Shown here piece after piece: positions 3,982 through 14,581 of a stretch of 64,000 nt of DNA. Under the pieces are notes generated by a model, which did not search any database, was not told where the DNA came from, and worked only from the letters and a program-made list of their open reading frames with translations. This stretch comes from Escherichia coli (GTDB taxonomy: Bacteria; Pseudomonadota; Gammaproteobacteria; Enterobacterales; Enterobacteriaceae), in NCBI RefSeq assembly GCF_016026235.1, contig NZ_CP065613.1, one strand, 5' to 3'. Position numbers and translations under genes: made by a program. Position 1 is the stretch's first letter, and each line of letters opens with the position of its first letter.

Positions 3982-4815
3982 TCAACGCATATTCAGTTTA
4001 TTGGCGTGGTAGGCAATATGCTCGCCAATAAAACTGGAGACAAAATAATAGCTGTGGTCGTAACCCTCGTGATAACGGATTAACGTCTTGATATTCATCT
4101 CCTGGCAGATCTTTTCAAGATTTGGAGTCCGCAGCTGTTCCGCGTAAAAATCATCACTCAACCCCTGATCAACCATGATTTCCGCAACGCGTTGACCTTG
4201 TGAAATAAGACTCACCGGGTCGTAATACAACCAGGCATCTTTATTTTCACCAAGATATGCAGCAAAGGCTTGCTGTCCCCACGGTACTTGCGATGGGGAG
4301 ACAATGGGCGAAAACGCCGAGACGCTGGCATATTCATCTGGGTTACGTAACGCCAGCACCAGCGCGCCCAGCCCGCCCATAGAATGACCAGAGATAGACT
4401 TTTTGGCCGTTGCCGGAAAATGATGCATCACTAAATCCGGCAGCTCGTTGCGGATATAGTCATACATTTTGTAATGTTCATTCCACGGCGCTTGCGTCGC
4501 GTTCAGGTAAAACCCGGCACCTTGCCCGAGATCGTAACGGTCGGCATCTGCGACATGACTGCCTCGCGGACTGGTGTCCGGCGCAACAACAATAATGTTG
4601 TGCTCAGCCGCGTAACGCTGCATCCCCGATTTAGTAATGAAATTCTGCTCGTTGCAGGTCAGGCCTGAAAGCCAGTACAGCACCGGCAATTTTTCATTCG
4701 CGGCTTTTGGTGGGAGATAGACGCCGACATTCATTTCACATTTCAGTGATGCGGAATAATGCCGATACACATTTTGCCAGCCGCCAAAGCTGGCATGTTT
4801 TTCAATGAGTTCCAT
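3982..4815 (-). CDS. frmB: S-formylglutathione hydrolase
   Basis: 277-aa ORF; esterase motif GHSMGG; position downstream of frmA. Confidence 0.95.
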   Translation of the reverse strand: MELIEKHASFGGWQNVYRHYSASLKCEMNVGVYLPPKAANEKLPVLYWLSGLTCNEQNFITKSGMQRYAAEHNIIVVAPDTSPRGSHVADADRYDLGQGAGFYLNATQAPWNEHYKMYDYIRNELPDLVMHHFPATAKKSISGHSMGGLGALVLALRNPDEYASVSAFSPIVSPSQVPWGQQAFAAYLGENKDAWLYYDPVSLISQGQRVAEIMVDQGLSDDFYAEQLRTPNLEKICQEMNIKTLIRYHEGYDHSYYFVSSFIGEHIAYHANKLNMR

Positions 4816-4907: not shown

Positions 4908-6047
<1,140 letters not shown>

Positions 6048-6051
6048 TCAG

Positions 6052-6327
6052 CTATTTAAGATAGGCACGAACCAGTTCAATAGTGTCGTCAACGGATTGG
6101 CTGACTTCGCGGCTGTAGCAGTCATTTCGGTCAAACGTTTCCCGGATATGGCTTTCAAGCACTTCTGCCATCAGCCCATTAGCCGCGCCCCGAACGGCAG
6201 CGATCTGTTGGAGTATGGCACGGCATTCGGCATCACCCTCCAGCGACCGTTCCAGAGCATCAATCTGCCCTCGAATACGACGAACTCGAGTAAGGACCTT
6301 TTTCTTCTCTTCCGGAGTACTGGGCAT
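6052..6327 (-). CDS. frmR: formaldehyde-responsive transcriptional repressor (CsoR/RcnR family)
   Basis: ORF 6052..6348; ATG at 6327 gives 91 aa ([12 protein letters not shown]...) matching FrmR; first gene of frmRAB. Confidence 0.9.
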
Positions 6328-6353
6328 TTCGCACCTCATCATCTGCACGCAAT

Positions 6354-6402
6354 ATACTATAGGGGGGTATGCTATATGTCAATACATACCCCCCTATAGT
6401 AT
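6354..6402. promoter_or_regulatory. putative frmRAB operator: perfect 17-bp inverted repeat ATACTATAGGGGGGTAT (15 bp spacer) ATACCCCCCTATAGTAT
   Basis: Arms at 6354..6370 and 6386..6402 are exact reverse complements; sits directly upstream of the frmR start on the minus strand. Confidence 0.7.
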
Positions 6403-6486
6403 ATAACACTGGAGAATAATTGTTGTCCGAAGCCTAACCAGGTGAACGGTCCCTCAAGACAGATGGGGACCGTTTATGTGCTATTT

Positions 6487-7533
6487 TTATGCCGCATCCG
6501 CTAAAACAAACATCCCGTAAGGATGGATTTCGAGGTAATAGTGCTCACCAATATCGGGCTGTAAACGGGTGGCGTTTACTTGTAATAAAATCTCCTGTCC
6601 ATGCCACTCTACGGTCACTTCGTACTGCGGCCCCATGTAGGCGACATGGCGAATAACACAACGCTGACTCTCTTCGCCGTGATTGCTTAAGGTGATGGCT
6701 TCCGGGCGAACGCCGACGGTGCCGCTACCTTGCGCCGGGAAATGCGCCGCGCGCGGCAGGCGATAACCGTAGATATCGACATACTCTTCGCTAAAGTTCG
6801 CCGGGAACAGGTTGGCGTCGCCCATAAAACTTGCCATAAAGCGGGAGGCTGGCTGACGATAGAGCTCCTGCGGTGAGCCAATCTGCATGATGTGACCTTT
6901 ATTCATCACCAGCACAGTGTCGGACACCGCGAAAGCTTCACTTTGATCGTGAGTGACGTAGAGCGACGTGATATTAAACTGCTTTTGCAGCTCGCGGATC
7001 TTATCGCGCATACTGCGGCGCAGGTTGGCATCGAGGTTACTTAACGGCTCATCAAACAGCAGCACCTTTGGCTTGAGGATCAACGCGCGGGCCAGTGCCA
7101 CTCGCTGTTGCTGACCACCGGAAATCTGATCGACATAGCGGTCCTCGAAGCCTTCCAGATCCACCATTGCCAGCGCCTCCTTCACCCGCTGTTTCACTTC
7201 GCTACGCGAGACGCCAAGCATCTTCAGCCCGTAGCCAACGTTTTCACCCAGCGACATATGCGGGAACAGAGCGTATGACTGAAACACCATGCAGATATCG
7301 CGCTGTTGAATGGAACGATGCGTGACATCTTCGCCATCAATAAAAATTTGCCCTTCGCTCGGTTTTTCCAGCCCGGCAACCAGACGCAAAATGGTGGTTT
7401 TGCCACAGCCGGAAGGACCGAGCAGCGTCACCATTTGCCCTTGTGGAATGGTGAGATTGATATTGTCGATAACCGTATTACTGCCGAATCGTTTAGTGAC
7501 GTTGCGCAGTTCAACAAAATTTTTCTGACTCAT
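6487..7533 (-). CDS. afuC: ABC transporter ATP-binding protein, AfuC-like (start may instead be 7545)
   Basis: Walker [13 protein letters not shown] signature [10 protein letters not shown]-terminal TOBE-like region; GGAG lies 6 nt upstream of the ATG at 7533; an alternative ATG at 7545 overlaps the afuB stop by 1 nt. Confidence 0.8.
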
Positions 7534-7544
7534 ATTGCGCTCCA

Positions 7545-9623
7545 TTACGCCTGGTTTTTGGCTTTAGAACGGGAGATACGAGCTTCTCCGATCAGCCAGT
7601 CAAAGAGGAAAATAATCGCCAGCATCACCACGATCAGAATCGAACCATAGGCGATGGCTACGCCATATTCGCCGTCTTCAACGCGGTTAAGAATGTAGGC
7701 GGTTGCCACGCGGGTGTCCGGCGTGACGAGAAAGACGATGGCGCTGACCGTCGTGATGGCCCGCACAAAGCTGTAGATCAGGGCCGAGAGAATGGCCGGA
7801 CGCAGCAGCGGCAGTAAAATGTGGGTTATGGTTCGCAAGGAACCCGCGCGCAGGCTGAGTGAGGCTTCATCCAGCGATTTGTCGATCTGCCCCAGACCCG
7901 CAATCCCGGCGCGAATACCCACCGGAACGTTACGCATCACCATCGAGATAATCACAATTGCCGCCGTTCCGGTGAGATAAACCGGAGCGCTGTTAAAGGC
8001 AAGAATATACGAAACGCCCGCCACCGTACCCGGTACGGCAAAGCACAGCATGGTGGTGAACTCGATGGTCTTTTTGCCTTTGAATTGTTGACGCACCACC
8101 ACCCAGGCGATGAGCAGGCCAAAGATAGCGGTAATGGGAGCGGCAATCCCGGCGTAGAGCAGGGTATCCAGCAGTGAAGGCCACGCGCCGTCGCTCATTC
8201 CCTGACCAAATAGCTTGATAAAGTTATCCAGCGTCAGGGTGTAGTCCACGCCCCAGTTCACCGTGAAGCTGCCGTAGAAAATGCTGCCGTAGAGCAGGGC
8301 GTTAAAGGCAATCCATATCGCAAGTATGGCGACCACGCTCCACACCAGGGTGACCGGTAGCGGCTGGACGTCGCCACGGTAGGATTTGCCGGAAACCGTG
8401 ACGTAAGAGCGTTTACCAATCCACATATACTGGATGCAGAACACCAGCAGCGAGAACAGCAGCAGGAAAGCGCCAAGGGTGCTGGCGGCCTGATAATCCA
8501 GCTGCGAGCCGGTAATATAGAAGTAAATTTGCGTCGCCAGTACGTCGAAGTTACCGCCAAGTACCAGCGGGTTACTGAAATCAGCCAGTGACTGTACCAC
8601 GACGATTAAAAAGGCATTGGCGAGTGCGGGCTTCAACAACGGCACAAACACGCCGTTAAAGGTTTGCCAGCGGCTGGCGCGCAGGGTGTAGGAGGCCTCT
8701 TCCAGCGAGGGATGAATGGTTTTAATGGCCCCGTCGAGGATCATAAATGCCATTGGCGTGAATGCCAGAACCTGTGCCAGCCAGATCCCGGTAAAACCGT
8801 ACAGCCAGTTGGTGTTGGTCAGCCCAAACCACTCCACCATAAATTCCGTAACATAGCCGGAGCGCCCCATCATGAGCGTCACGCCTAAGCCGACCACAAA
8901 CGGTGGCGTAACGATGGGCAAAATGGAAAAGATGCGACCAATAATGGCGCTGCGTTTAGCGATGCGCGTGGTATAAATCGCCAGCACCAGGCCGAAGAAA
9001 GTACAGCCTATCCCCACCGCTATCGACAAGACGATAGAGTTGACGATCACCTGAACAATATGTGCCTGCGAGAGCACGGTCATAAACGCCAGCGGGGCGA
9101 ACTCTCCCGCGTCGTTGGTGAACATCGGGATAAAAATGGCGATGCTCGGCCAGACGATAAAAATGCCAATCAGCGCCACAATCGCAATCAGTGAGCCGAT
9201 CACGAAGCGGTCGCCACCCAGCCATTCGAGGCGGGTTAAGGCCAGCGTCATAATCGCGCCTAGTTCGACAAACAGCACGATGGCGGCGTAGCCTAAACCG
9301 CGTCCAACCACGGTGGCGCTGATGACGATAAACGCCATACAGAGCAATGCCCAGCCGGCATCGAAATAATGACGGCTACGTTGTTCGCGCGTGGCCTCAC
9401 TAAACGGGCGGACCAGCAACAGGCTCGGGAGTAAATACCACAGCCAGCTGATATTAAAATGCGACCAGCCGTACGCCCCGAGGATCTCATCACTCGTGGA
9501 CTCCAGCAGGCCATAATCGAGGCTCCAGCTCGGCAACAGTATAAATGCCAGCCAGCCCAGCAAAACCCAAAGGAAAATCGCATCCCGCTTTTTCACGGGA
9601 TGGAGTGCAAGTGTCTGTGACAT
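7545..9623 (-). CDS. afuB: ABC transporter permease with duplicated transmembrane domains, AfuB/FbpB-like
   Basis: 692-aa highly hydrophobic ORF with two-lobed permease organisation; lies between the binding-protein and ATPase genes. Confidence 0.85.
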
Positions 9624-9691
9624 AGCAGTTCCGGTATGGTTGGCCGGGGCAGGCGTTTGTGCTGCACCCGGAAAATACGCCTAATGCGGGT

Positions 9692-10723
9692 TTATTTACC
9701 CATCTTCACTTCGCTGACCCATTTATTAATCAATGCCTTACGAACATCCGTGGAACCATATTTATCCATGTCGTAGTTGATTAATTTCAGGTCGTCGAGC
9801 TTCAGTGAATTTGGCGACGTTTCGGCGGTGGTATTGGTCAGGATCTGATAAGACTTCCCTTTCTTCCACGCCAGTTCCTGAGCTTCTTTTGATAATACCC
9901 AGTCCACAAACAGTTTGGCGTTGTCGAGGTTGCGCGCGCCTTTCAGAATGCTGACGCCGCCAATTTCGTAGCCTGTACCTTCACACGGGGAAATCAACTC
10001 CAGCGGCGCGCCCTGTTCTTTTTCCAGCGAGTAGTCATGCAGGAAGCCAATACCAATCGCCGTTTCGCCACGGGCGGCGTTACGTGCCGGGGCTATGCCT
10101 GATTTGGTGTACTGAGAGACGTTGGCGTTCAGTTGTTTTAGATAATCAAAGGCCTGATCTTCCCCCCACAGCTGCGCAAAAGTAGCCAGGGCGGTGTAGG
10201 CAGTACCGGAACTTTGCGGATCGGCAATTTGAATTTCGCCTTTATATTCCGGTTTGGTGAGATCTTTCCAGCACTTCGGCACCGGCAGGTTTTTCTCTTT
10301 CAGACGATCGGTGTTTACGCCAAAACCGAGGATCCCCACATAAACGGCAGAGGACAGATTCCCTTTCACTTTTGCCGGATCGCGGAATTTCTCCATGATC
10401 TGCTCAAGGTTAGGGGATTTATACGCCTGTAGCAGGCCCATCTCGCCAGCCTGCGATTGTGGGTCTAAAGTGCCGCCGTACCAGACGTCAGCCTGGGGGT
10501 TTTTCTTTTCAGCATCGACTTTTGCCAGGGTGCTTCCGGAACCGTTGCGGATAAACGAGGTTTTTACATCATATTTCTCGCCAAACGCTTTGGTTTCGGC
10601 CTCACACATTTCATTGGTGGCGCTGCAATAGACCACCAGCCGGCCTTTTGCCTGCGCGGCACCCGTTAAAGTCGCCAGCGCAACGGCAGAAGCAATCAGA
10701 GTAGAGGTAAAGGTCATTTTCAT
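9692..10723 (-). CDS. afuA: periplasmic substrate-binding protein, AfuA/FbpA-like (proposed sugar-phosphate binding)
   Basis: ORF 9692..11050; internal ATG at 10723 gives MKMTFTSTLIASAVALATLTGAAQA signal peptide; the upstream extension overlaps the neighbouring gene and is spurious. Confidence 0.85.
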   Translation of the reverse strand: MKMTFTSTLIASAVALATLTGAAQAKGRLVVYCSATNEMCEAETKAFGEKYDVKTSFIRNGSGSTLAKVDAEKKNPQADVWYGGTLDPQSQAGEMGLLQAYKSPNLEQIMEKFRDPAKVKGNLSSAVYVGILGFGVNTDRLKEKNLPVPKCWKDLTKPEYKGEIQIADPQSSGTAYTALATFAQLWGEDQAFDYLKQLNANVSQYTKSGIAPARNAARGETAIGIGFLHDYSLEKEQGAPLELISPCEGTGYEIGGVSILKGARNLDNAKLFVDWVLSKEAQELAWKKGKSYQILTNTTAETSPNSLKLDDLKLINYDMDKYGSTDVRKALINKWVSEVKMGK

Positions 10724-12036
10724 TGTTTTATCCTTCGAGCGTGAGTGGTGGTGATGCCCGCCATCAGTAACGGCATCAGCAGTAAACCCATAAGTACTGC
10801 GGCGACCGAGAGTAAACTGAACATTCCCGGCCAGCCGTAGCGTTCGATGACCAGCGACAGCGGCCAGCCTGCCAGCGCTGCGCCAAGGTAAGCGAACAGG
10901 CCGAGAAATCCGGTGATTGAACCCGCCGCAGCTTTGTGCCCACACTCCACCGCCGCAAGTCCAATCAGCATTTGTGGGCCAAAGACGAAAAAGCCCACGG
11001 TAAAAAAGCACACTGCCAGCAGAGCGTAGTGATGAACCGGTGCCAGCCACAGTGCGGCGACTGACACCATCAACCCCAACGTGAACAGCAAAATCATTGG
11101 CGCTCGTTGCCCGCTAAACAGCAAATCCGATCCCCATCCGGCAAATAACGCGCCGAGTAAGCCGCCCACTTCAAACAGCATTACCGTGGCGTTGGCGCTG
11201 AGCAGGTTGACACCGTGGCTTTCCGTCAGCCAGATATTGCCCCAGTCGTTAAGCGCAATCCGGATCACATAAACCAGTACATAAGAGACGCCCAGTAGCC
11301 AGATCAGCGGATTTTGCAGCATGGTGGTGCGCAACATTTGCCACAGCCCCATCGGCGGACTTTGTTGTTCCTGACGTAACTCCAGCGGATCGTGACGCCA
11401 GTGACCAACTGTCGGTAATCCCTCTTCCTGGGGCGTGCCTTTGAGTTGTAGCGTTAACCAGATCCCTAATGCCATGCTGATTATCCCCGGTGTCAGCATC
11501 GCGGCCTGCCAGCCCCACCAGTGGGCGGCAAAGGCGCTAATCAGCGGAATAATCGCTCCGCCAATGTTGATCGACATATTCCAGCAGCCCCACCAGAAAC
11601 CGCGCTCATTGCGTGAGTACCAGTGGGTCAGCAAGCGGGCACACGGTGGCCATCCCCAGCCCTGAAAAAAACCGTTCAGTGTCCAGACCACAAGCAGAAG
11701 CGTAAGTGATTCGCCAAAGGCAAACACCACGTTCAATAACCCGGTGGCGAACAAGCCGACGCCCATAAAACCGCGTTGTCCGTGGCTGTCATGCCACAGT
11801 CCGGCGGTAAATTTCGACAATCCGTAGCTGAGATAAAACAGCGAACCCAGCAGGCCAATGTCGCCTTTATCCAGTCCGAGGTCGGTTTGTAGCGCCGGAA
11901 GGACGTAATTCACGCTTTTTCGCGTCAGATAAAATGCGGCGTAGCCAATAATCATGCACATCAGCAATCGCGGACGTAATGTCCGGTAGCATTGATCAAT
12001 TTCTCTCGCTGAACGCGCGTGCATGGTTGTCTCCAT
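10720..12036 (-). CDS. MFS protein, UhpC-like sugar-phosphate sensor/transporter paralog
   Basis: 438 aa; clear similarity to K-12 UhpC recalled from memory (e.g. FFQGWGWPPCARLLTHWYSRNERG versus UhpC FFQGWGSPVCARLLTAWYSRTERG); TGA stop overlaps the afuA ATG. Confidence 0.85.
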   Translation of the reverse strand: METTMHARSAREIDQCYRTLRPRLLMCMIIGYAAFYLTRKSVNYVLPALQTDLGLDKGDIGLLGSLFYLSYGLSKFTAGLWHDSHGQRGFMGVGLFATGLLNVVFAFGESLTLLLVVWTLNGFFQGWGWPPCARLLTHWYSRNERGFWWGCWNMSINIGGAIIPLISAFAAHWWGWQAAMLTPGIISMALGIWLTLQLKGTPQEEGLPTVGHWRHDPLELRQEQQSPPMGLWQMLRTTMLQNPLIWLLGVSYVLVYVIRIALNDWGNIWLTESHGVNLLSANATVMLFEVGGLLGALFAGWGSDLLFSGQRAPMILLFTLGLMVSVAALWLAPVHHYALLAVCFFTVGFFVFGPQMLIGLAAVECGHKAAAGSITGFLGLFAYLGAALAGWPLSLVIERYGWPGMFSLLSVAAVLMGLLLMPLLMAGITTTHARRIKQ

Positions 12037-12108
12037 GTTGCTGACTATATGAAAATGAAAGTGAAAGGGGATGAGAGAAAATCCGGGATACCTAAGACTT
12101 TTTCCTGG

Positions 12109-13650
12109 TTATCCGGCGATTTGTTGCAAAAATGTGGGCAAGTTAACAATTACCCGCGTGCCGTGCTGTTTTTCGAGCGTTAAGTCGCCGCCCAGGGCGC
12201 TGACGCGCTCACGCATCCCCTGAATGCCAAATCCGGCCATTTTCCCGCTGGCGATCCCCACACCGTTGTCGCTGACTTCCAGATGCAATACCTCTCCCTG
12301 CTGGCGCAGGATAATCGTCACTTCGCTGGCTTCGGCGTGTTTACAGATGTTATTGAGCAACTCCTGCAATAACCGATACAAGGTAAAGCGCACCGTTTCG
12401 TTTTCTGGTGTGGAGTTCAGTTGATAGGCAAACTGGCAATGAATGCCGCGTTCACTAAAGGCAAATTCATTAATCAGATGCAGCAACGCTTCGCGAAATG
12501 TCAGTTCATCAAGCGCGGGAGGCCGCAACTGGCGCAGCAATTGGCGGGTGGAGAGATGAATGCGGCGGGCGAGCTCATTGATTTGGCTGGCTGCGGATTG
12601 AATTTGCGCCGGATCACGCGCCCGCTTCACCAGTTGCGACTGGATCTGAATGGCGGTGATGTTCTGACCGATTTCGTCGTGCAGCTCTCGCGCCAGGTTT
12701 TTTCGCGTGTCCTCCTCGGTGTGGATCAGCTTTTCCGCCAATGCCCGCCGCGCTGCCAGCTCGGCCTCCAGCCGTTGTCGGTAATGGTGCAGGTTTAGCG
12801 CCAGATGTTGCTGGCGACTGATGGCAATGCCCAGGCCAATTCCCAGCAAGGCCTGGGTCGCGAGGAAAATCTCCAGCTCCACCAGGTTACTAAAGCCCAC
12901 GCCAATCTGGCGGGCGATGGTGATCATCATGCTGCCCAAAAGCCCGGAGAGTACGCCACCTTGCCAGCCAAATTTCCACGCCATCACCACATTGGGCAAA
13001 AAGACCACGATCAACAGCAGACGTTCAATTTCAGGTGACAGCACCATCTGAGTGCCGATACCAATAATAAAAAACAGGCTACACCAGATGATTAAAGAGG
13101 TACGCAAGGGGGGATTATGCGTATCGAGTCCCAGGAGCTGGTAGCGATGCTGCTGGCGCAGAAACTCAAAGATAAGATAGACAAACGGCGTCAGTAATAC
13201 GCCGCCGGTAAATGAGGTCAAACCCGGCAGCATTATTGGGCCTGACATAAAAGGGGAGAGCAGGGCGGTATTCAACAATGAAGCTGCCGTGACAGTGGCT
13301 AACAGCAACGTCAGACGCTGCCAGTAAAGTGGAAAACGGTGCCAGAAGTTTTGCGCGAGGAGGACAGGAAACAGGCTAATAACCGGCGTTGCCAGCATGA
13401 GATAACCGTTCAATAGCTGTTCACTATGGAGCCAGAACATCATCAGCAAAGGGGGGAGCACCAACGCAGGCCAGTAGCGGCGAGAGAGCAAAATAACAAG
13501 GGCGAGATAAACTCCCTGCGGGAGAAACAACACCGCCTGTTGACCGTTATTGGTCAGATAAAAGCTGAGCGTCCACAGCATCAGCCAGCCGGTTCCCCAG
13601 GCCAGCACAATAAACAGCGAAATCACCCAATGACGAAGATTGCGCGACAT
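12109..13650 (-). CDS. sensor histidine kinase, UhpB-like (membrane N-terminal domain, HisKA_3, HATPase)
   Basis: 513 aa; N-terminal polytopic region, conserved WKFGWQGG and RELHDEIGQ H-box region similar to UhpB. Confidence 0.85.
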   Translation of the reverse strand: MSRNLRHWVISLFIVLAWGTGWLMLWTLSFYLTNNGQQAVLFLPQGVYLALVILLSRRYWPALVLPPLLMMFWLHSEQLLNGYLMLATPVISLFPVLLAQNFWHRFPLYWQRLTLLLATVTAASLLNTALLSPFMSGPIMLPGLTSFTGGVLLTPFVYLIFEFLRQQHRYQLLGLDTHNPPLRTSLIIWCSLFFIIGIGTQMVLSPEIERLLLIVVFLPNVVMAWKFGWQGGVLSGLLGSMMITIARQIGVGFSNLVELEIFLATQALLGIGLGIAISRQQHLALNLHHYRQRLEAELAARRALAEKLIHTEEDTRKNLARELHDEIGQNITAIQIQSQLVKRARDPAQIQSAASQINELARRIHLSTRQLLRQLRPPALDELTFREALLHLINEFAFSERGIHCQFAYQLNSTPENETVRFTLYRLLQELLNNICKHAEASEVTIILRQQGEVLHLEVSDNGVGIASGKMAGFGIQGMRERVSALGGDLTLEKQHGTRVIVNLPTFLQQIAG

Positions 13651-14279
13651 TAATGCCCCGCCAGCAGATGGTGGTCGAGCGCAAAATGTACCAGTTCAAT
13701 GGTGCTATGGCAGTTCAGTTTTCCCAGCACATTGGCGCGATGCACATGTACCGTTTTATGACTGAGTTCGAGTTTAAAGGCGATCTCTTTAACGCTGTCT
13801 CCTTTGACCAGTAAATCAAACACTTCACGTTCTCGTGGGGTGAGAATTTCCAGCGCCTGGGCGGGTTGCCCGCCGCCGCGTAAAGCCCGAATCGCATCGG
13901 CACAGAGATAATGCCCGCCCAGCCCGACCGAGCGCACCGCCTGCACTAACTCTTCCGGCCCACAGCGTTTGGTTAAATACCCGCTGGCACCGGCATCCAG
14001 CGCGCTTTGCACAAAGGTTGGCGCGTCATAAATGCTAAGAATAATGGCGCGAAATTGCGGTTTTTGTGCACGCAGGCGCTTAAGCAAACTGAGGCCGTTT
14101 TCGTCCGGCATGGCAATATCAATGACGGCAACATTGACGTCATCACGGATTAATGCCGACCATGCCTGCGCGGCACTACTGTACTGACCAATGACCTCCA
14201 GATCGTCTTCCAGAGAGAGTAATTGTGCGAAGCCAGAGCGCACCACCACATGGTCATCCACCAGCACTACCCGAATCAT
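13650..14279 (-). CDS. response regulator, UhpA-like (NarL/LuxR family)
   Basis: 209 aa; MIRVVLVDDHVVVRSGFAQLL receiver domain and C-terminal LuxR HTH (KTVHVHRANVLGKL) closely parallel UhpA. Confidence 0.85.
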   Translation of the reverse strand: MIRVVLVDDHVVVRSGFAQLLSLEDDLEVIGQYSSAAQAWSALIRDDVNVAVIDIAMPDENGLSLLKRLRAQKPQFRAIILSIYDAPTFVQSALDAGASGYLTKRCGPEELVQAVRSVGLGGHYLCADAIRALRGGGQPAQALEILTPREREVFDLLVKGDSVKEIAFKLELSHKTVHVHRANVLGKLNCHSTIELVHFALDHHLLAGH

Positions 14280-14581
14280 ACTTTTCTTCTCTTATTATCT
14301 AATTCTCCTATCATGCATCACGGCGCGGCGCTGGCAATCAACCAGCGACAGATATGGAATGGATGTAACAAAATGGCAATAATTTGCCGGAGCGCGCACA
14401 TCTTATCTGGCTTGTGAACCGGCGGGATACGTTCGCCAAAACCGCAAAATGCGCAAACTCGCTAACCATTGCCGATTTTTTTCTAAAAACGCTTTGTTCT
14501 TAACAAGACCTTTTAATTCCTTTATCAAACTGACCCGCAACGAAATACTGCTCCCATAACAAGACAGGGGAGCAGACAATC

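Follow-up and report, generated by a model that had tools for sequence, protein, structure and literature searches.

The closest described counterpart of the locus analyzed here is the frmRAB promoter (Pfrm) of Escherichia coli K-12, whose palindrome was recognized by Denby et al. as a pair of tandem type I FrmR sites with ATAC/GTAT flanks (2016, Sci Rep 6:38879, PMC5146963, Fig. 6a). A type I site is defined, as quoted in the same paper, by a G/C tract of 3-8 bp at the site centre, and the large inverted repeat was reported to be centred at -29 from the predicted transcription start. FrmR bound Pfrm DNA with a Kd of about 220 nM, compared with about 3600 nM for control DNA, and was dissociated from it by formaldehyde; the protein also repressed in vitro transcription, formaldehyde relieved this repression, and the sensing chemistry was shown to consist of Pro2-Cys35 methylene bridges (PMC5146963). 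Binding was followed on a fragment comprising the whole promoter, while the boxes were assigned by sequence (PMC5146963), and we found no base-level footprint of FrmR on these exact E. coli bases in the literature examined.

Two other systems are close enough to be compared. The frmRA operator-promoter of Salmonella Typhimurium likewise contains a C6 tract with a T/A-rich inverted-repeat flank that is required for FrmR binding (mutation of one flanking repeat abolished it), and DNA binding is likewise weakened directly by formaldehyde (Osman 2015, 2016; PMC4528141, PMC5016687). It differs from the E. coli operator in its sequence, in its genomic location, and in being a single site that, on a 33-bp probe, binds two tetramers, and the E. 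coli and Salmonella FrmR proteins are only about 52% identical and have been described as polyphyletic (PMC5016687). The operator of E. coli RcnR, located in the rcnR-rcnA intergenic region, consists of tandem TACT-G6-N-AGTA sites (Iwig and Chivers, cited in PMC5146963). Like the FrmR operator, it comprises type I sites in tandem, in each of which a G6 tract has TAC/GTA-type inverted-repeat flanks, it overlaps a promoter, and it is served by a paralogous DUF156 repressor. The two differ in the effector (formaldehyde for FrmR, Ni/Co for RcnR), in the spacing of the boxes (32 bp vs 19 bp), and in the box itself, since in that of FrmR an additional ATA separates TACT from the G tract. An RcnR-box identity of the palindrome was rejected, as TACTGGGGGGNAGTA had no match in the window with up to two mismatches.

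The FrmR boxes have also been used as building blocks. When ATACN9GTAT boxes were put into the constitutive promoter J23100, the latter became FrmR-repressible and inducible, whereas repression was lost in a truncated PfrmR with both boxes but without the upstream DNA (PMC11127321, 2024). In view of this truncation, the boxes alone may not suffice in the native context, and the flank beyond the distal box may matter for repression.

The element is the control point of the E. coli operon for glutathione-dependent formaldehyde detoxification, and its use in formaldehyde biosensors, which are widespread, and in dynamic control in synthetic methylotrophy is established. Pfrm was reportedly also subjected to sort-seq by Rohlhill in 2017. 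The repeat has already been published as the FrmR operator for the K-12 locus, and its recognition here mainly confirms the annotation. What the present analysis adds is small: (i) the functional unit is the 17-bp ATAC-N9-GTAT box and not the G6 tract or the 20-nt arm, (ii) this box is conserved over three classes of Proteobacteria, and (iii) about 8% of E. coli genomes have an island that starts 15 bp upstream of the operator.

Anatomy of the frmR operator and promoter

The window (i.e. the whole stretch of DNA analyzed, 64 kb in length) carries frmR on the minus strand with its ATG at 6327, so that "upstream" corresponds to higher coordinates. A mechanical list of open reading frames placed the frmR start at a GTG at 6348, in contrast to the annotated coding sequence used here (cf. 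Table 1). The 91-residue product matches the NF008464 equivalog end to end (189 bits vs a cutoff of 133) and PDB entry 5LBM over its full length, and its accession, WP_001141271.1, is common to the window and K-12.

An earlier note on this DNA had pointed to a perfect 17-nt inverted repeat with arms 15 bp apart, located about 27 bp upstream of frmR. The repeat is indeed there, with ATACTATAGGGGGGTAT at 6354-6370 and its exact reverse complement ATACCCCCCTATAGTAT at 6386-6402, and 26 nt lie between the ATG and the repeat edge at 6354; perfect pairing actually reaches further, giving arms of 20 nt and a spacer of 13 nt. It is the sole perfect inverted repeat of at least 14 nt in the window when spacers of up to 40 nt are allowed, the runner-up having arms of 13 nt. 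By our arithmetic, a perfect 20-nt repeat is expected by chance about 2e-6 times in a window of this size (about 64000 x 41 / 4^20), and the length of the perfect arms together with their uniqueness therefore leaves chance as no explanation.

The 17-nt arms coincide exactly with two ATAC-N9-GTAT boxes, of which the distal one is the mirror image of the frmR-proximal one, at a distance of 32 bp start to start. A search of the window for this motif returned these two boxes only, with 0.58 matches expected by chance, and no further FrmR boxes were found elsewhere in the 64 kb. Both boxes have the hallmarks of type I operators: a central tract (G6 at 6362-6367, C6 at 6389-6394), exact ATAC and GTAT flanks around it, and a position overlapping a -35/-10 match directly upstream of frmR. 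By direct count, the box centres (6362 and 6394) are 32 bp apart, which corresponds to about 3.05 helical turns and places them on the same helix face; the value of 31 bp given by Denby et al. (PMC5146963) represents a minor counting discrepancy.

The promoter was predicted as a sigma-70 site with 10 of 12 consensus positions and a 17-nt spacer, and it was the sole promoter-like site between 6200 and 6600. On the frmR strand, the stretch between the boxes reads G-TATTGACATATAG-C. A second -10-like hexamer, TATAGT, can be read at 6356-6361 and overlaps the predicted TAGTAT. As far as the sequence tells, repressor boxes and core promoter are interleaved, with one predicted hexamer adjoining the distal box and the other lying within the proximal one. 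The GAGGT of the likely ribosome-binding site is kept in enterobacterial homologues.

Table 1. Coordinates of the frm genes, the FrmR operator, the predicted promoter, and the adjacent accessory segment in the window.
Feature	Position	Strand	Remarks
frmB/fghA	3982..4815	(-)	S-formylglutathione hydrolase
frmA	4908..6017	(-)	S-(hydroxymethyl)glutathione dehydrogenase
frmR	6052..6327	(-)	CsoR/RcnR-family repressor, 91 aa; Pro2, Cys35, His60
Likely ribosome-binding site GAGGTG	6332..6337	(-)	4 nt before the frmR ATG; read from the sequence
Left arm of the 20-nt perfect inverted repeat	6352..6371		
frmR-proximal FrmR box, ATAC-N9-GTAT	6354..6370	(-)	frmR strand reads ATACCCCCCTATAGTAT; holds the predicted -10
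Predicted -10, TAGTAT	6354..6359	(-)	inside the proximal box, at its 3' end
Spacer, 13 nt	6372..6384	(-)	contains the -35 hexamer
Predicted Pfrm -35, TTGACA	6377..6382	(-)	in the spacer, adjoining the distal box
Right arm of the 20-nt perfect inverted repeat	6385..6404		
Distal FrmR box, ATAC-N9-GTAT	6386..6402	(-)	frmR strand reads ATACTATAGGGGGGTAT
Accessory segment, 8.1 kb	6420..14543		replaces K-12 yaiO-yaiX-IS2-yaiP-yaiS

Comparison with K-12 and proposed mode of action

An alignment with K-12 Pfrm, i.e. the same locus, showed that both 17-bp boxes are 100% identical and that the -35 (TTGACA) and -10 (TAGTAT) hexamers are the same, so that boxes and promoter hexamers are those of the published operator. 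The two sequences differ by two substitutions outside the boxes (G in the window vs T in K-12 at 6371, and A vs G at 6384), as a result of which the perfect arms are 20 nt long in the window and 19 nt in K-12. Starting 15 bp upstream of the distal box, the window continues as an accessory island, whereas K-12 continues as the yaiO region.

We consider it very probable that the palindrome serves the frmRAB promoter as its operator, composed of two mirror-image 17-bp type I FrmR boxes with the promoter interleaved. The earlier note had proposed an FrmR operator of the G/C-tract, CsoR/RcnR type that controls formaldehyde-inducible expression of frmRAB, and this is borne out by the agreement with the K-12 literature and by the identity of both the boxes and FrmR; the binding experiments that it suggested have largely been published for K-12, on the whole-promoter fragment and not base by base (PMC5146963). 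The sequence anatomy, the identity of the boxes with those of K-12, and the conservation within and across species described below are established here.

The most likely mode of action is the following. The boxes, 32 bp apart start to start and each with a G6/C6 tract, serve as type I sites of the CsoR/RcnR kind, presumably with one FrmR tetramer per box. Tetramers bound in this way would cover the -35 and the -10 and exclude RNA polymerase, which would keep the levels of frmR, frmA, and frmB low. Pro2 and Cys35 of different FrmR subunits are cross-linked by formaldehyde, the DNA-binding face is reshaped as a result, and the reshaped repressor leaves the DNA and allows the operon to be transcribed, probably from a start at about 6347-6349. 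Because frmR is the first gene of the operon, the circuit is negatively autoregulated.

Conservation within E. coli

The 80-bp promoter element was present in 5408 of 5426 complete E. coli genomes. Both boxes were invariant in the ten E. coli alleles sampled, with polymorphisms at 6371 and 6384 and outside the repeat. Of 80 copies retrieved from metagenomic E. coli, 61 had perfect arms of 21 nt, 12 of 19 nt, and 3 of 20 nt, and the main alleles were a 21-nt type (61 copies, the commonest), the K-12 type (11 copies), and the type of the window (3 copies); these figures cover variation outside the proximal arm, which the retrieval pattern had fixed. The arm length of the window is thus unremarkable for this locus, and the description of the arms as unusually long and perfect, made in the earlier note, was overstated, both because ordinary E. 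coli alleles have arms of 19-21 nt and because the conserved functional unit is the 17-bp box.

Rare variants of the distal box were also seen among the 80 metagenomic copies, namely a shortening of C6 to C5 in two, a 1-bp insertion in one, and a C-to-T change within the tract, as in E. albertii, in one.

Conservation across Proteobacteria

We compared 82 frmR upstream regions, comprising 80 species representatives, the window, and K-12. An exact ATAC-N9-GTAT box was found no more than 125 nt from the start codon in 67 of them, which span Gamma-, Beta-, and Alphaproteobacteria, and in every case it overlapped or filled the core promoter; most of the other 15 had near-variant boxes. A second box was present in 20 of the 82 regions, mostly from Enterobacterales, Aeromonas, and Deefgea. 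The distance between the boxes, start to start, was 32 bp in Escherichia and Deefgea, 33 bp in Erwinia (where the boxes are direct repeats), 34 bp in Edwardsiella, Enterobacter, Morganella, Providencia, Aeromonas, and Serratia, and 35 bp in Pantoea. In the tandem-box species, TTGAC is kept 2-3 nt after the distal box. The 2-bp difference between the spacings would match the shift between the overlapping -10-like hexamers within TATAGTAT, with TAGTAT as the probable -10 in Escherichia and TATAGT in the 34-bp group, and with the distance from -35 to -10 staying at 17.

The G6 tract, which the earlier note had emphasized, is not conserved in these sequences, several other genera having GTGGAG/CTCCAC in its place. 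What is kept is the mirror symmetry between the boxes: 86.6% of the cells pair, a level reached by none of 500 shuffles. This symmetry is limited to the 17-bp boxes (the flanks are unpaired in 6 of 15 sequences), which indicates that the box, and not the 20-nt arm, is the functional unit. Either both boxes track the specificity of the repressor or the arms homogenize each other.

The boxes are exact mirror images in Escherichia (GGGGGG/CCCCCC) as well as in the clade of Edwardsiella, Enterobacter, and Morganella (GTGGAG/CTCCAC), and two fully compensatory changes, G to T with C to A and G to A with C to T, separate the two groups. Near-identical frmR upstream regions occur in different genera, one being shared by Citrobacter, Klebsiella, and Maribrevibacterium and a second one by an Edwardsiella plasmid, Enterobacter, and Morganella. 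In E. coli, 7 of 5495 frmR-region matches were on plasmids. The frm module is evidently mobile.

Alternative explanations of the palindrome

An inverted repeat of this size could have its main role as a hairpin in RNA or DNA, e.g. as a bidirectional terminator or an insulator against read-through from upstream, with the link to FrmR being secondary. As RNA, the region does fold strongly (a stem of 21 pairs, -44.7 kcal/mol, z = -6.6 vs shuffles), the upstream genes (fbpC in the window, yaiO in K-12) are co-oriented with frmR, and compensatory arm-to-arm changes are seen across genera. However, no U-tract follows the stem, which is succeeded by TGCGTG on the frmR strand and by AACACT on the other, neither of them the T/U run of an intrinsic terminator, and a terminator scan made no call on either strand. 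The cross-species symmetry ends at the edges of the 17-bp boxes, with unpaired flanks in the 6 sequences mentioned above, most frmR homologues have a single box and hence no long hairpin, and in Erwinia the boxes are direct and not inverted repeats. Furthermore, since transcription is predicted to start downstream of the palindrome, the mRNA of frmR itself would not contain it. In spite of the strong fold, the missing U-tract and terminator call, the single-box homologues, and the direct repeats of Erwinia led us to reject this explanation, which we regard as very improbable.

Another explanation concerns the symmetry itself, which might be maintained by arm-templated repair, i.e. by concerted evolution of the arms, and might in turn let the -35 spacer flip occasionally. 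An allele that prompts this idea is found in E. coli FJ_Ec_21 (NZ_CP143627.1), where the central part of the palindrome matches the reverse complement of the K-12 allele exactly, down to the arm mismatch specific to K-12. The inverted stretch covers positions 69-89 of the alignment (6368-6388 in the window), and the allele is accounted for by one event in place of about 11 single-nucleotide changes; judged from this pattern, it looks like a single inversion or template switch, though it could also be a single assembly artefact. We give such a maintenance mechanism with occasional flipping only a slim chance.

Slimmer still is the chance that the palindrome is an invertible promoter, in which recombination or template switching between the arms flips the -35 spacer, turns frmRAB off, and creates an FrmR-controlled promoter directed outward. 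In FJ_Ec_21, the 10/12 match TTGACA-17-TAGTAT has indeed moved to the strand facing away from frmR. Against a switch stands the finding of one carrier of the inverted allele among about 5408 genomes, in a search whose identity bands are confounded by the palindrome also matching the opposite strand, and scans of metagenome contigs gave 0 inverted vs 95 normal matches; the two orientations do not both occur at appreciable frequency, as they do in an inverton. No invertase or recombinase is annotated within the 40-kb neighbourhood of the identical strain, where only distant IS transposases are found. A spacer of 13 nt also counts against the inverton reading, as it is too short for any known recombinase-mediated inversion. 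With no other full-length carrier and with the metagenomic ratio of 0 to 95, we dismiss the idea of a regular switch and mention the inversion as a curiosity. If the flip were real, it would convert Pfrm into an outward-facing promoter still under the control of FrmR and silence frmRAB, and if it were recurrent and selectable, it would amount to a recombinase-free promoter switch built from the repressor's own operator.

That the repeat is a scar or target of the neighbouring island (an attachment site or a terminal inverted repeat) and not a regulatory element is the least credible proposal of all: although synteny breaks only 15 bp from the repeat and the upstream contexts of the Escherichia species differ from about the same point, the palindrome is unchanged in about 4960 island-free genomes including K-12, occurs in other genera with unrelated flanks, and has no matching repeat at the right end of the island (a search of the window for repeats gave no further copy), and its presence without the island excludes an attachment role.

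The adjacent accessory island

Homology of the window with K-12 and about 4960 other genomes stops at 6419, 15 bp past the repeat, and restarts at 14544, the right junction of the island lying 38 bp before tauA. The intervening segment encodes an fbpC/afuB/afuA-like ABC transporter, a UhpC-like receptor, a MASE1 sensor kinase, and a response regulator, and it was found in 450 of 5426 E. coli genomes (about 8%), including O157:H7 strains. The repeat had been taken to mark the left edge of this island; it is near that edge, but the junction (6419/6420) lies 15 bp outside the repeat and not at it, and the palindrome adjoins the junction without being part of the island. Other Escherichia species diverge upstream from about the same point. 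If flanking DNA has a part in repression, which is hinted at by one truncation experiment, it could be of consequence that the island starts 15 bp upstream of the operator.

The island lies precisely in the interval between Pfrm and the tauA promoter. All Escherichia contexts retain the 15 bp next to the distal box on its far side (AACACTGGAGAATAA, in the region 6405-6429 of the window), a degenerate similarity to K-12 persists to about 6429, and a TTATTCT motif is found repeatedly in the mobile enterobacterial clade. Between the junction and the stop codon of fbpC (6487), the window contains a further perfect inverted repeat of 9 bp at 6445-6474 (AACGGTCCC / GGGACCGTT, with a loop of 12 nt); only on the plus strand does a T-rich run come after it, which is the wrong orientation to terminate fbpC.
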